Source: a phage. Taken from it: a stretch of DNA of 64,000 nucleotides. The notes under the pieces were generated by a model. It worked only from the letters and a program-made list of their open reading frames with translations, was not told the DNA's origin and ran no database searches. Below are positions 6,147 to 56,626 of this stretch, one piece after another. Made by a program: the position numbers and the translations under genes. Every line of letters begins with the position of its first letter. The first letter of the stretch is position 1. Location: sequence record NC_104726.1; one strand, 5' to 3'.

Positions 6147-7429
6147 TGCATCAAATCAAAACAACACTGTACGCACTGAACAAAGATGGCAGCTACCAAC
6201 AGTGGAAAGTATTCACTGATGGCGAAAAGGTTATCGTAGAGTTTGGCAAGCTTGACGGTAAATTGCAGTACAAAGAGACGGTATGCACACCTAAAAACGT
6301 AGGTCGTGCCAACGAGACTACAGCTGAGCAACAGGCCGAGCTTGAGGCTATCAGCAAGTGGGAAAAACAAGTCCGTCTGGGGTATGTTGAAAACATGGAA
6401 GATTGCGAGCAGGGTGTTGATCTTTTACCTATGCTGGTGCATGACTACCTGAAGCGTGGCAAGGCACTTAAATTACCTTGCTGGATCTTGCGTAAGTTAG
6501 ATGGCCTTCGTCTGCTTGTTGTTTTCCAAAATGGTGAGCCTAAATTTATTTCCCGTGGTAATAAGTCCTACCCTATTCAAGGAAAGCTTTTAGAGCAACT
6601 TCGTTCTTTCCATTCTACCACTGGGATTAAACAACTTGATGGGGAACTATACATTCATGGTCTTCCTTTGCAGAAAATAGTGTCTCTTGCTAAACGGTGG
6701 CGCACACAGGAAGAGATTCAGGCCGAGATCGATAAAGACTATGAGGCAGATAAAAAACGCCGTCATGCAGCAATTAAGGCAGGCTTATCAACATACAAAA
6801 ACTTCAACAAGGTAGATATTCCTGTCGATGTTGAGCCTGTTCGTGATGATTTGCGTTACGGTGGATACTGTAGCTACGATCTGGAGTATCACATTTTTGA
6901 TATTCCTAGCGACAAGGTGTGGTGGGATCCAGAAACAGAGTCTGGACGCTGCAAGGATCTTATGGATGCAGAGGATACCGTTACCACTCTGATGCTTGAT
7001 CATATCAAGGTTGTTGACGCAGAGCTTGCGTACACAGTTGATCATTGCGAAGAATCTGTTGGTATATTCATGTCCGAAGGATATGAAGGTACTATCATGC
7101 GTAATTTCTGCGGTAAATATGAGTATGGTCAGCGAACATCTGAAGCATTGAAATGGAAAAAGTTCAACGACGCAGAGGTGAAAGTTATTGACGTTGAGAA
7201 AGATAAGAATGATGAAGGTGTTCTTATCTGTGTTGACAAGGAAGGTATTGTTGTTAAAATGAAGATGAAAGGTACGCACGAGGAGCGTAGCTATGACAGA
7301 ATGCAGGAAATGATCGGCAAGTTTGTCACCTTCAAATATCAAGCAAGGACAGAAGACAACAACTACCAATTCCCTGTCGGTATCTGCGTCCGAAATGTTA
7401 ACCCAGATACTTGGGAGGTTCTGGAATGA
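6146..7429 (+). CDS. ATP-dependent DNA ligase
   Basis: Motif I KLDGLR (KxDGxR), motif IV EGTIMR, motif V KWKK; 427 aa. Confidence 0.8.
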   Translation: MHQIKTTLYALNKDGSYQQWKVFTDGEKVIVEFGKLDGKLQYKETVCTPKNVGRANETTAEQQAELEAISKWEKQVRLGYVENMEDCEQGVDLLPMLVHDYLKRGKALKLPCWILRKLDGLRLLVVFQNGEPKFISRGNKSYPIQGKLLEQLRSFHSTTGIKQLDGELYIHGLPLQKIVSLAKRWRTQEEIQAEIDKDYEADKKRRHAAIKAGLSTYKNFNKVDIPVDVEPVRDDLRYGGYCSYDLEYHIFDIPSDKVWWDPETESGRCKDLMDAEDTVTTLMLDHIKVVDAELAYTVDHCEESVGIFMSEGYEGTIMRNFCGKYEYGQRTSEALKWKKFNDAEVKVIDVEKDKNDEGVLICVDKEGIVVKMKMKGTHEERSYDRMQEMIGKFVTFKYQARTEDNNYQFPVGICVRNVNPDTWEVLE

Positions 7430-7554
7430 TGTAGGATGGTTTAGTAGGTAACGGTAGCCAATTGAATGATGGTTTTTCAATTGGCACCTACATAACCACA
7501 CCACACAGTGGTGCTGATCGGGGCTCGTTATGAGTGAACTGGAGAGTATGAAAA

Positions 7555-42436: not shown

Positions 42437-42556
42437 AGCACCGAGCCCACACAGGTTCCTCATGCTAAAGCATGGCCTGAAGAGGCAAACGTGCATAATT
42501 CCTGTGCATTGTGACGTATAAAACCCGTTCACACTCTCATTTCCAGAGGAGATTTC

Positions 42557-42772
42557 ATGAAGATAGAAATATTTGGTGGAGCTGACAACACTCGTGGCCT
42601 GATTTACCTTGAATTCGATGAATCATACCTGCCAGAGGTGTTAAATATAGGCTCTGTTGCTGAGGCTTTGGGAGTAAACCCTAAAGAACTCCACTCTTGT
42701 GCTGAGATCGATGGTTGGGAAGAGACCATGAACATTGATTTCAGTGAAGTAGAGGATGAACCGCTTGACTGA
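42557..42772 (+). CDS. hypothetical acidic protein (71 aa)
   Basis: AGAGGAG SD; last plus-strand gene before the non-coding region. Confidence 0.5.
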   Translation: MKIEIFGGADNTRGLIYLEFDESYLPEVLNIGSVAEALGVNPKELHSCAEIDGWEETMNIDFSEVEDEPLD

Positions 42773-44235
42773 CACACAATTAGCTGCCCGGCTAAAGTGC
42801 TGGAAGCACCTATAACACATCTTTCAACTAAATTTCCTACCACCACAATCACTTACCTCCCACACATGACTGTTTGCTTGTTTAGTGAGCAGTCATGCCT
42901 TGACATTCTTGCCTATCCTGATAAAATTAAGTTCTTCTCTTTTCTTTTACCGAGTAATTCGGGTTTTCTGTTCTCTTCGGTTTGAAGGGGTATGGAGATA
43001 CACCTGAGTGAACAGGGTGAACAACCGAACATTTGGCTATGGCATTAGCATGGCGAAGCGGACGGGTGACGAAAGAGGGGCCGGAGGACACCAGTCACTG
43101 CCATATGATATATGGGTGATAACCTGAAGAGTCTGAATAAGTGTTTAAGTACCAGTCAGAGGAAAAGGTGAATGGTAGCCGAAGGGGGAGGGGGGTTTCT
43201 TGTATCTTTAATTTGTATATTATGTATACACTCGTAAACCAATCTCATCTGAATCTGTTTACCACACAAAGTAGATAGGGACAAATATCACCTATTAAAC
43301 TTGAATTATTTATAGAAAATACCACAACACCACTTAAGTCTTTGATTTTACACACAAATCCTACAGATATTCAACCTCTATATTTAACATATTCATAACA
43401 TATTCCATACTCTACCTGTCTGATCAATTTACCCAACCACATCCTCCATATTTTCCCTGTCTGTACTACCCCTGCCCCGCCGGGAGTCCCGTCATATCTG
43501 GCTTTCCAGCAAATATCACACCCACAAATATCATTACCTGAAGAGGGTTTCATCCCATAATACCTGCCTTACCTGAAGAGCGCTTCATATACCCCGTAAA
43601 TTTTTTAATTGACCCCCTCCCCGCCGCCGGAGGGGTCGGCTTTTCCCACACAGGCCTGAAGAGTCAGCCAGAAATATCTGAACAGGTCCAGTTATACCAC
43701 GATTTTGACCTGACCGACAGGAGTGCTGCCAGGCGGACGAAATGGGAATCATTCTCATTCTTATAACAATTCTCAAATATCGAGGCAGTGAGGCAAATTA
43801 ATAGGTGAGGCCGTTCACACAATGGCACAACATTTGCAACCTATCTTGTGGGAGTGAATGAGAATACCTATCATTGTGAGAATAGTTATCATTACGGGCA
43901 ATTTAACATAATACCCATTATGCGCACCACTGGCGATCCATACAGGGATTGATAACATGAGTTACCGTTTACGCACATAACAATTATATTTCTTACTATT
44001 TGTGTGGGATATAGTTAGCAGCCAATAGATTAGATATTAACCTGCGGACTTCTGACCGTCCAGACGTCTAAACGCCCACACAACAAGGGTTATACATACA
44101 CAACTGAATGTAAACAGGGCCGCAAAAATGCTACCATACCAGTTTGTAAATTTTCATGCAGCACTTGACAAAGAGGAGAAAAACTTGTCTGACACCTTAT
44201 ACACTTTCGACACAATAACGACTGTTATTATTTCA

Positions 44236-44315
44236 TGTTTCACTGTTCACGTATAGATTGTTCCCGCATAGACTGTTTACGCCTGGATAGTTTACACCTT
44301 AACTGTTTACACAGA
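44236..44315. repeat. iteron-like direct repeats of (C)TGTTTAC-type motif
   Basis: ctgttcac, ttgttccc, ctgtttac, tagtttac, ctgtttac spaced about 11-14 bp apart. Confidence 0.45.
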
Positions 44316-44384
44316 TAGGATAAGCCATGACATTCGTTTGCATGAAAACAATTAGCAAGTTAACAATTAACAAGTTAATAATAT

Positions 44385-44580
44385 ATGACATAATATAAAA
44401 GCAGGGCAACTATTAGCAGATCTATAGTTGCCTTGCTTGTTATGTCATGATTAACTGAATACAAGGCAACTATGATCTGATTAATAGATTGCAGACAAAC
44501 TATCACGGGGGTGATGGTTACTGCTTTTATATTATGTCGCGACTCCGTCGCGCCATGCCATTCGTTTGCATAGTTGCCTT
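44385..44580. repeat. nested inverted/direct repeat structure (18-bp perfect inverted repeat flanking GGCAACTAT repeats)
   Basis: gacataatataaaagcag at about 44387 and its reverse complement at about 44521; ggcaactat four times in both orientations; ccattcgtttgcat direct repeat. Confidence 0.55.
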
Positions 44581-45185
44581 ATTGTTACGAATAAAACAAT
44601 TGCATTGTTAATGATTTCTTATCTTTCTCTTAGTCATCTAATGATTACAGTCAGTATAGTTATGTACAGTAAACATTAGACGACTAAAGATTTCTCTGTT
44701 TATTATAACTTACCATTACAATTTCGGACTGTTTACCAAGAATGTTGACACATAAGCTGATTTATGTTATGCAGTTTACACGAATAATTATTTTATGCAG
44801 GTATTGACTATTCCGTTATTCTATGGTTGGAATAAATACTTAGCAGACTATAGAATGGTGAGCGTACGTAAATTCTGAGATCTGGCGGCTATAGTTATAC
44901 TCGATTTTTCACGTAGAACACGCTTTTGTGGTTGTGTAAGTGTATGACTTATAAAGATTTTTAGTTGTTGACAAGACACTGAAGATATGCATCAGGTTAA
45001 ATTTTGTGCAATAGCTGCATTACGTGCACTTTTGGGAGAGAAAACGGGTAAAAATGGGCCTGCTACCACACAATGAAAGATTATGCAATAGTTATTTTCC
45101 ATGTATATTTGTACAGTATGTGGAATTGATGGCTAGTCAATTATTCCACTTGCCAGGTAGGGCCGTTTATGGTAGGAGAAGAGCA

Positions 45186-45215
45186 GACAAAAAGAAAGGG
45201 GCCTTTAAGCCCCTT
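45186..45215 (-). terminator. rho-independent terminator (minus strand)
   Basis: aaggggc-cttta-gcccctt hairpin; on minus strand followed by tctttttgtc; just downstream of the stop at 45234. Confidence 0.6.
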
Positions 45216-45233
45216 GATAATTCAGTTAAGAAA

Positions 45234-45653
45234 TTATAATGATTCGTATATTTCAAAAATCCGATTTGCCAGGTCGTTACGGTAGCGGAATTTTTCCTCA
45301 CGTTTGATCATCAGATCTTTAAAGCCATATTCTTTAAGCACTTCATTAACTTTATGGCGGCATACCTTCATATTATCTTGAGCGTCACCAATAAACTTGT
45401 TGCTGTGGTGCATTGCTTTAATTTCTTCTTCCAGGACCAGGGCAACCACCCGGACCGGATCAAGCTGGTAGGCGGTAACATCGATGCGGCATTGTAGACG
45501 GCTTTTAACGTCTGCCACCGGATATACTGCAACCTCTTCCCCGTCAACATTGACAATAACTAGTTTACCATCGATTTCGAATCCTTTCGCCGCCGGACCG
45601 TGACAAAAAGCGTTATCAAAGCTATATGCCGGATTATTAGATTTAATGTTCAT
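45234..45653 (-). CDS. hypothetical protein (139 aa)
   Basis: ORF with SD on minus strand. Confidence 0.5.
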   Translation of the reverse strand: MNIKSNNPAYSFDNAFCHGPAAKGFEIDGKLVIVNVDGEEVAVYPVADVKSRLQCRIDVTAYQLDPVRVVALVLEEEIKAMHHSNKFIGDAQDNMKVCRHKVNEVLKEYGFKDLMIKREEKFRYRNDLANRIFEIYESL

Positions 45654-45797
45654 GGTGTTTTTACCTCTTAGTTAATTTTCTTACAACTTCCCTTCAAAAA
45701 GAATATAGCAAAACTGCCGATCCTTGTCAACCAAGGATAGCATAATTTTTATGTGATCAAGGGGCTTTATTGCCCCCTGATCGTGCAACTTGTTGTA

Positions 45798-55609: not shown

Positions 55610-55869
55610 TTTTGTACCTCCTCTTCAATTGTTACCTATCCTATAGCATAGGCCCACCAGGTTTGCAAGCCTTCATTATCTCCTACCTGGTCAGTTAGGC
55701 CCTGCCAGGCTGGCCCCGCCAGGTTGCAGCGGTCAGCGCATCAGGTTAGAATTTTTTTTTTGAAAAGTGTTGACAGCGGCCCCGCCAGGTGGCAAAATAT
55801 ACCTATCGAAAGGACGGCAGGCACCGGTGACGGGGGAGACAACCACCGGGGATGGGCGCTGCATGAAAT

Positions 55870-55889
55870 GAGAACGATTATCATTATCG
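55870..55889. promoter_or_regulatory. Fur-box-like palindrome (GAGAACGATTATCATTATCG)
   Basis: Hexamer-repeat structure close to the GATAATGATAATCATTATC iron-box consensus, downstream of a GC-rich hairpin. Confidence 0.4.
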
Positions 55890-56005
55890 TCTAAAAATTT
55901 ATGCAAAAACTTCTTGCTTTCTTTGTCCTGTGTGTTACTATAATAACAAGCCGGGGCAGTAGGGGCCGGGAGACAATCACCGGGCCTGCCCGTTATTCTG
56001 CAAAC

Positions 56006-56022
56006 GAGAATGATTATCATTC
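56006..56022. promoter_or_regulatory. Fur-box-like palindrome (GAGAATGATTATCATTC)
   Basis: Second copy in an imperfect about 90-bp direct repeat of the preceding element. Confidence 0.4.
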
Positions 56023-56135
56023 AAAATTCTAAATGAGAACTCCTCGCATTTAATAAATTTAATTAGCACGCTAATTACCCTCCGTAACAATTTCCTATAA
56101 AATAGTATCCACTAAAATATTCCCATATAGAAATT

Positions 56136-56320
56136 TTAAAAATCCATTTCTGAAAACGAAAAATCGATTTCGTCCCCAAAAATTTCAGGCCAAGAGCCGG
56201 AGCGATTTCCAGAAAATCCGATTCAGAAAACGAAAAACAGATCAAGTACTGAGAAATTTATCGAGAAAAATTTTCAGAAAATCCAAGCCCTGAAATGAAA
56301 AGTAGATCGAGTACCTGGAA
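56136..56320. repeat. three imperfect about 40-bp A-rich direct repeats (AGAAAATCC...TGAAAACGAAAAA...GAT...)
   Basis: Units starting near 56139, 56212 and 56277 with 65-73 bp periodicity. Confidence 0.55.
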
Positions 56321-56626
56321 AGCTGCACCGCAACTTCAAGATAGTGGTTAGATTGTTACCATAGAAGGTCAAGGGTAAGTGGAGGAAGTTCTAGTAGAGG
56401 GAGGTTAGCATGTGTGGGAAATCTATAATGGTGGCCTGGAATATGGTGCAAACGATAGGATGAGTTATTCAGCTTGTCGCGCCTACTCTGAAAAATCCAT
56501 TTTAGTTTTCGATCCATTTTCTGATTTTCTAAGAATTTTAAAATATCTGGCCCGGTGAAATATCAAAAGGAGGAAATCCATTTTAGAAATCCCCCTTATA
56601 CTTGATATGCCAGGAATTTTCAAGTA

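Follow-up and report, generated by a model that had tools for sequence, protein, structure and literature searches.

Positions 42773–45233 of the window, as we call the 64,000-nucleotide (nt) stretch of phage sequence record NC_104726.1 analyzed here, form a gene-free gap that is probably the phage genome terminus in its concatemer-junction form: a right-end arm (42773–43731, 43% G+C), a terminal repeat (458 bp, 40% G+C) and a left-end arm (44190–45233, 35% G+C). Over 2.8 kb around the gap, 121 phage records match at 91–95% identity, essentially all of them rV5-like coliphages of the genus Vequintavirus, and by this similarity the window phage is itself one of them. The gap corresponds to the 'non-coding' box of the rV5 genome paper (Kropinski 2013, PMC3606486) and to a ~2-kb intergenic region of phage Bas54 that received zero transposon insertions in a saturated library (HIDEN-SEQ preprint, 10.1101/2025.11.20.689424). 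Both papers concern the same locus in close relatives and neither gives it a function; the preprint speaks only of 'an important functional role' and never mentions termini. Genome ends within the gap would explain both the conservation of the region and its lack of insertions in Bas54. The feature is of a known kind, and the terminal repeat itself has already been published for relatives. New here are the link between the 2013 'non-coding' box, the 2020–2023 repeat reports and the 2025 insertion-free zone, as well as positional motifs shared across genera, a covarying hairpin element and a conserved promoter-driven unit.

Several deposited genomes begin or finish inside the gap. The Gotham record annotates repeat_region 1–459 and 136567–137025, two identical copies, and the same 459 bp open and close the HdK5 record. 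The repeats of both phages fall on window positions 43732–44189, where these ends are matched once only and where the end and the start of each record join seamlessly. Because identical 459-bp repeats stand at both ends of these relatives' records, we read the gap as a concatemer junction. The left cut falls between ...GGAGTGCTGCCA and GGCGGACG..., and the right cut between ...AAAAACTTGTC and TGACACC.... The bov10K2 record, from a third laboratory, starts at 43732, exactly with GGCGGACG, and ends at 43731, exactly with ...GCTGCCA. The first base is therefore identical in three independent Vequintavirus records, two of which carry exact repeats of equal length. For Gotham, 459-bp terminal repeats and a start sequence common to all virions have been reported from coverage analysis (PMC7471380); this repeat is homologous to 43732–44189, which we assign by that homology as the putative terminal repeat of the window phage.

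The same arrangement recurs in other genera. The Klebsiella phage KPP-1 (Mydovirus) has a 514-bp direct terminal repeat (DTR) found by coverage analysis and PhageTerm (PMC9862379); it sits in a convergent, gene-poor gap, and the KP12 and DP records begin at that boundary too. Mt1B1_P17 (Phapecoctavirus, a different subfamily) carries an exact 328-bp repeat at both record ends, located in a 1.5-kb gap that adjoins a homologue (91% identical) of the window's 139-amino-acid (aa) gene. Sequence shared base for base by both physical ends, as expected of DTR-type ends, is thus found in Gotham and HdK5 (459 bp) and in Mt1B1_P17 (328 bp). Relative to the left cuts of the window, KPP-1 and Mt1B1_P17, which were determined independently, GTGCT lies at −9, −6 and −6 and AAATATC at +43, +43 and +44, respectively, with additional same-strand AAATATC copies upstream. 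In PVP-SE1 (Seunavirus), a 2.27-kb gene-free convergent gap contains GTGCTA, then GACGGAC across the predicted boundary, and AAATATC at +43; the PVP-SE1 gp115 homologue proved unreliable as a synteny anchor, lying 36 kb from the repeat in KPP-1. At the right end, TTTGTAAATTT-N-CTTGACAArGAGrAGA...TTGT is common to the window and KPP-1, which resemble each other in boundary motifs and overall layout. The layout is retained in Mydovirus and Phapecoctavirus and is predicted for Seunavirus. Within Vequintavirus, where we judged conservation from an alignment of 15 genomes, indel-rich hypervariable patches adjoin both boundaries (43700–43720 and 44190–44385) and the boundary motifs are conserved. 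The Gotham and KPP-1 papers give the existence and length of the repeat only; the arms, motifs, hairpin element and conserved unit are not described there.

The gap lies where two gene blocks converge, as the initial annotation had proposed: the plus-strand block stops at 42772 with its last gene (42557–42772), and the minus-strand block stops at 45234 (last gene, 45234–45653). That no credible open reading frame (ORF) occupies the gap also held. Its longest ORFs encode 40–71 aa and have no match in Pfam or PHROGs, and nearly all are broken in the 15-genome alignment, in which every genome (15/15) keeps both flanking genes intact; neither tRNA nor tmRNA genes were found. Every motif that had been named is present and non-random, and together they fall into three separate compartments, namely the right arm, the repeat and the left arm (Table 1). 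We recovered the tandem Fur-box-like pair (43859–43875 and 43877–43893, 13–14/19 matches to the E. coli consensus), the array of TGTTTAC direct repeats (44236–44315, period ~15 nt, with CTGTTTAC present in 5 copies in the region versus 1 in the other 61.5 kb) and the perfect 18-bp inverted repeat (44387–44404 and 44521–44538) enclosing GGCAACTAT sites in both orientations. Two details needed correction: the four CCTGAAGAG copies lie at 43123, 43537, 43572 (not 43565) and 43655, and the GC hairpin said to carry a T-run (43609–43639, −16 kcal/mol) is followed by merely 4 T. Of the proposed functions, which were a replication origin, a pac or cos region, a terminus or a non-coding RNA locus, the relatives' terminal repeats favor terminus and packaging; the ends appear to be fixed, with a short exact repeat, which argues against a 'pac' or 'cos' site in the strict sense. 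A non-coding RNA is plausible for the sub-block 42931–43197 only, and Rfam scans at permissive thresholds returned no family, with matches at chance level (E ~0.6 to 7).

Table 1. Features of the gap, in window coordinates (strand '.', no orientation assigned).
Feature	Position	Strand	Details
Hairpin, 14-bp stem, no T-run	42865–42897	+	−19.1 kcal/mol, z = −5.3; 3' end of plus-strand gene block
Sigma-70 near-consensus promoter (TGATAAAAT)	42900–42927	+	TTGACA-16-TAAAAT, TG before −10; 11/12 matches; directed at right genome end
Non-coding near-invariant unit, ~270 nt	42931–43197	+	10 variable columns/300 nt
G-poor, rut-like stretch, nearly structure-free	43200–43600	+	C/G = 2.6; AAATATC at 43283, 43511, 43526; CCTGAAGAG at 43537, 43572
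C-rich GC hairpin and CTTTT, weak intrinsic terminator	43609–43639	+	~95–120 bp before left cut
Right-arm segment before cut	43655–43731	+	Last CCTGAAGAG copy; AAATATC at 43672; hypervariable patch; cut context GGAGTGCTGCCA ending at 43731
Putative direct terminal repeat, 458 bp	43732–44189	.	Maps to both ends of relatives' records
AAATATC inside repeat	43775		+43 from left cut
Right-end motif, inside repeat	44143–44153 and 44164–44189		TTTGTAAATTT ... CTTGACAAAGAGGAGAAAAACTTGTC
Hypervariable short direct-repeat arrays	44190–44385	+	GACAC-type, ~15-nt (A)CTGTTTAC and CAAGTTAACAATTAA units
20-nt direct repeat GCCATGACATTCGTTTGCAT, copy 1	44324–44343	+	Brackets hairpin element; conserved; equivalents in clade B
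Multi-hairpin element, perfect 18-bp closing stem	44387–44538	+	GGCAACTAT sites; terminal hairpin AACTATCACGGGGGTGATGGTT
20-nt direct repeat GCCATGACATTCGTTTGCAT, copy 2	44552–44571 (segment 44552–44580)	+	Overlaps fourth GGCAACTAT site, 44570–44578 (−)
AT-rich rest of left arm	44581–45195	.	Scattered TTGACA boxes; CTGTTTAC at 44729; weak promoter-like sites
Intrinsic terminator closing minus-strand gene block	45196–45215	−

The right arm contains a promoter-driven unit that is more conserved than the neighboring genes, with 10 variable columns in the 300 nt of 42900–43199 versus ~10 per 50 nt in the flanking genes. No ORF accounts for this conservation, the few substitutions being mostly non-synonymous in every frame checked, and neither 5,426 E. 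coli genomes nor GTDB genomes contain anything similar to the block. Its promoter is of the TGnTAAAAT type that Table S4 of PMC3606486 gives for rV5. The unit comprises a 5' polypyrimidine tract, the exact cores CTGAGTGAACAGGGTGAACAACCGAA and GTTTAAGTACCAG and one CCTGAAGAG copy (43123); a G5-A-G6 tract (43184–43195) closes the unit, and the DNA beyond is AT-rich. A diverged homologue (~77% identical over the first 115 nt, more diverged beyond) is carried by a sister clade, clade B (loci L024, L036, L037, L039, L040 and L044, from a sequence-pattern search of IMG/VR and metagenomes). Another IMG/VR search, anchored on protein, yielded three loci only. Clade B keeps the promoter position (TTGCAA-17-TGnTATAAT), the pyrimidine tract, the two exact cores and the 3' G-tract pair; its 5' hairpin is replaced (CCGA/UCGG vs CCAGAA/UUCUGG), one helix is compensated (UAUGGCA/UGCCAUA vs UAUCGCA/UGCGAUG), and four sequences have lost the CCUGAAGAG copy that the unit contains. 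In the folds of both clades, the 5' tract pairs with the 3' G tract. A functional transcript or a transcription-dependent DNA element is a plausible explanation of this near-invariance.

One alternative to a terminus is that the main content of the gap is one or more non-coding RNA genes, chiefly a ~270-nt early RNA made from the 42900 promoter and acting in trans on host factors or packaging. Such a gene would account for the near-consensus promoter of the phage's own class, for conservation beyond that of the adjoining genes and for the paired ends, cores, promoter position, replaced hairpin and compensated helix in clade B. However, the unit folds with z-scores of only −1.9 to −2.3 and matches no Rfam family; its 12 'compensatory' pairs are overcounted, since the MAFFT alignment is partly out of register, and effectively represent two lineages; and clade B has no clear terminator. 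An RNA gene would also leave the repeat and the left arm unexplained, and we regard it as possible but doubtful as the main content of the gap.

The left arm opens with the repeat arrays, which directly adjoin the right edge of the repeat and differ in copy number and sequence among relatives with 91–95% identity across the region. They are followed by an inverted-repeat element that is the sole very strongly structured segment of the gap (z to −8, with a few other folded intervals at z of about −3 to −4). Its GGCAACTAT sites lie at 44405 (+), 44424 (−) and 44465 (+), with a further one at 44570 (−). Analogous elements of 134–211 nt, with perfect 15–21-bp stems of unrelated sequence, occur in the window, KPP-1 (L019 4139–4344), phAPEC8 and clade B, and a left-arm element of this kind is present in all four genera; in the window and KPP-1, it lies 200–310 bp past the repeat's right edge. 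The plus strand, in window orientation, folds 8–14 kcal/mol better than the minus strand in the window, KPP-1 and phAPEC8, a modeled bias that favors a single-stranded form of the element. Across seven Mydovirus and Seunavirus sequences, 97.9% of the cells of 55 base pairs are paired and 6 pairs (13 cells) changed on both sides; none of 500 shuffles reached this covariation score, and slid controls gave 0–1 such pairs. Substitutions within Vequintavirus in 44387–44538 are few, none is compensatory, and they are uninformative. The comparative alignment gives good evidence of selection on fold-back pairing in this element or, at the least, on strict symmetry. As to variants of the element, the homologue of 44385 is preceded in four relatives (L006, L008, L010 and L012) by a hairpin-rich insertion of 47–49 nt (CTTTCACTGGCTATGCCAGGTGACC...CACCCCTTCGGGTG), and phita32 (L006) has a 33-nt insertion at the apex of the element; these insertions may be small mobile or duplicated modules.

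Both arms bear on a second alternative, likewise a tentative one, in which the gap is wholly or partly a replication origin; this is compatible with termini. In one form, a G-rich RNA would be transcribed from the 42900 promoter and, through its G5-A-G6 tract, form a persistent R-loop beside AT-rich DNA. ColE1 RNA II and mitochondrial CSB II are R-loop primer elements in which a promoter likewise precedes a structured RNA ending in a G5-6-N-G5-6 tract beside AT-rich DNA; their resemblance to our unit is one in sequence only. In the other form, the origin would be the AT-rich left arm with its repeat arrays and multi-hairpin element. The strong conserved promoter, the G-run kept in two clades ahead of AT-rich DNA, the 35% G+C of the left arm and the strand-biased, covarying hairpins all fit an origin, as do the DnaA boxes of clade B, three of them, perfect and in tandem, at the homologous place, and the T7-like primase-helicase and PolA-type polymerase encoded by rV5 (PMC3606486). 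The exact DnaA box (TTATNCACA), however, was not found in the window's gap, and a leading strand started at the 42900 unit would run off the right end of a linear template after ~1.3 kb. An iteron-type origin is not supported: it calls for phased, conserved repeats with an adjacent initiator gene, whereas the iteron-like arrays, unlike initiator-bound iterons, differ in number and sequence between near-identical phages, and the neighboring genes include no initiator and have no Pfam domain. We rejected GC skew as evidence, because the skew switch is accounted for by gene orientation. The rV5 authors noted the same dependence and, between genes 163 and 164, expected bidirectional terminators but found none (PMC3606486). 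The clade-B DnaA boxes (TTATCCACA) are three in tandem and perfect in L024 (reverse complement, 2534–2573), L036 and L037 and two in L040; the predicted left boundary of the repeat is ~360–390 bp to their left.

Several points weigh against placing the genome terminus in the gap. The termini are carried over from relatives whose start-of-record regions (repeat and left arm) are 87–91% identical to the window. The literature is inconsistent, rV5 having been called circularly permuted (PMC3606486) and BpE1AUH headful by PhageTerm (2026). The insertion-free zone of Bas54, at ~2 kb, is larger than a minimal packaging signal needs, and the lack of insertions could stem from weak expression of the selection marker where nothing is transcribed. 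Headful packaging from a pac site in the region, giving circularly permuted genomes, is what has been stated in print for rV5 (2013) and BpE1AUH (2026), and most records are deposited in arbitrary permutations. Such permutation of records is, however, also expected when assemblies circularize through a short DTR. Tagmentation libraries hide termini from PhageTerm, which we count against headful packaging. Moreover, headful ends would lack fixed boundaries, whereas three Vequintavirus records share their first base, repeats at both ends of independent records are exact and of equal length, and the boundary motifs are conserved across genera. We consider headful packaging very improbable. Least credible, and scarcely worth entertaining, is that the gap is a mere buffer of terminators and decaying sequence between converging operons with no specific function: terminator-like elements at both edges and hypervariable patches would suit a buffer, but some blocks are conserved beyond coding sequence, structure covaries, motif positions are kept across genera and Bas54 tolerated no insertions.

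On the terminus reading, a non-permuted linear genome would be packaged with 43732–44189 at both ends and with a single copy in concatemers and circularized assemblies. Virion DNA would start at 43732 and run through the left arm (44190–45233), the minus-strand genes, the rest of the genome, the plus-strand genes and the right arm to its end at 44189. The arms would be recognized by terminase and end-processing factors, which would cleave at each edge of the repeat and make its second copy by strand-displacement synthesis, in the manner of T7; the large terminase gene appears to lie outside the window, judging by the rV5 gene layout. Recognition or positioning may depend on the AAATATC and CCTGAAGAG repeats, which share one strand, and on the GTGCT context of the cut, and the hypervariable arrays could be unconstrained by-products of end processing, or spacers. 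By analogy, the left-arm hairpin element might fold as single-stranded DNA that primes repeat duplication or starts replication. Terminators, hairpins and the G-poor tract would keep the two converging transcription units off the repeat, and the promoter-driven unit would supply an RNA or R-loop needed nearby. Beyond this, a speculative and rather unlikely proposal is that the junction houses an undescribed essential machinery of two parts: a ~270-nt sigma-70-driven RNA, its 5' pyrimidine tract paired with 3' G5-N-G5-6, and the strand-specific hairpin element. With similarly little confidence, we suggest that this RNA acts as an R-loop primer of the ColE1/CSB II kind or as a packaging or regulatory RNA, and that the hairpins prime repeat duplication or initiate replication.

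The T7 and T3 junction, the subject of work by Dunn & Studier in 1983 and by Chung, Nardone & Hinkle in 1990, reportedly has an exact short repeat, fixed ends and one repeat copy per junction, and is said to have short-repeat arrays flanking the repeat and a promoter transcribing towards the junction. In T7, an inverted repeat near the junction has reportedly been proposed to form a hairpin intermediate in concatemer processing. The gap is alike in its once-per-junction repeat, flanking arrays, nearby inverted repeat and junction-directed promoter. It differs in belonging to a 137-kb myovirus with no phage RNA polymerase and sigma-70-type promoters, in a repeat ~3 times longer, in having both flanking blocks transcribed towards the ends and in carrying a large hairpin element in the left arm rather than the right.

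If the gap is the terminus, Vequintavirinae and Phapecoctavirus can be argued to have fixed ends with short terminal repeats instead of circular permutation, which bears on genome deposition, on engineering (insertions here are likely lethal) and on judgements of transduction risk. It would also offer a testable explanation, in poorly studied therapeutic coliphages, for a locus labeled only 'non-coding' in 2013 and as having 'an important functional role' in the 2025 screen. Candidate cis elements for packaging and replication are thereby defined: the cut-site context, the AAATATC and CCTGAAGAG repeats, the hairpin element and the conserved transcription unit.

Of these short repeats, CCTGAAGAG occurs in 8 copies in the window, all on the plus strand, versus 0.54 expected. 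Three of the eight are in-frame Pro-Glu-Glu codons; the other five are at 42476, 43123, 43537, 43572 and 43655, those at 43537 and 43572 being invariant in the 15 genomes. The last copy, at 43655, reads CCTGAAGAGTCAGCC, and its KPP-1 counterpart reads CCTGAAGTGTCAGCC. Same-strand AAATATC copies lie at 43283, 43511, 43526 and 43672. We dropped the idea that a hammerhead core is marked by CUGAAGAG: on visual inspection, no GAAA/stem II context follows the copies at 43537 and 43572, the 43123 copy would require a non-canonical G-G pair, and Rfam gave no match.

Fur-box-like sites of the type TGAGAAT-N-ATTATCA occur four times in the repeat (43751 and 43769 on the minus strand, 43859 and 43877 on the plus strand) and also in the terminal repeats of KPP-1 and Mt1B1_P17. 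Counting overlapping matches (13–14/19 to the consensus, 12/14 to the 7-1-7 motif), 7 fall in the 458-bp repeat versus 38 in the other 63.5 kb, a ~25-fold higher density. The window palindromes resemble the E. coli Fur box GATAATGATAATCATTATC and its 7-1-7 form TGATAATNATTATCA, with up to 17/19 matches at 55870, but consistently depart from the consensus with G at position 4. In Mydoviruses and Seunaviruses, one copy serves as a stem of the hairpin element. On the speculative two-part machinery reading, the palindromes might link the process to a host or phage repressor. Besides Fur, a phage protein or structure alone would account for them just as well. Palindromes of the same type recur in a second gene-free stretch (55610–56355), which holds two tandem plus-strand units. 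Each unit consists of a sigma-70-like promoter, ~55 nt of GC-rich sequence prone to form hairpins and a Fur-box-like palindrome, which is GAGAACGATTATCATTATC in one unit (55870, 17/19 to the consensus) and GAGAATGATTATCATTC in the other (56006). Beyond them comes a tract rich in repeats that contains a 16-bp hairpin (56146–56183).

At the transcription edges, the 42865–42897 hairpin, immediately ahead of the 42900 promoter, is conserved in the 15 genomes, and clade B has a different hairpin at that place. C-run hairpins 70–150 bp before the cut are also present in KPP-1 and PVP-SE1. Within the unit's G tract, GGGGAGGGGG (43185–43194) is exactly complementary to 43613–43622, the 5' arm of the C-rich hairpin 418 nt downstream; this pairing might compete with the hairpin in an antiterminator-like manner. 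In the right arm of the clade-B relative L024, an inserted homing endonuclease gene (6716–7486; HNH_3, Pfam E = 1.3e-18) separates the promoter-driven unit from the C-rich hairpin; the window lacks this gene.

Gotham and HdK5 lack the 139-aa gene at the left-arm edge (45234–45653, minus strand), their records skipping from ~45220 to ~45760–45790. The product of this gene has no Pfam domain and is 91% identical in Phapecoctavirus, in another subfamily, where the gene again adjoins the terminal repeat; it appears to be an accessory gene of the genome end that can be exchanged. Finally, ~18 MG0656xx records named 'Campylobacter phage', with C. jejuni as host, are ~98–99% identical to the region (95–100% over all matches). 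By this similarity they look like Vequintaviruses, and their host labels are probably wrong.

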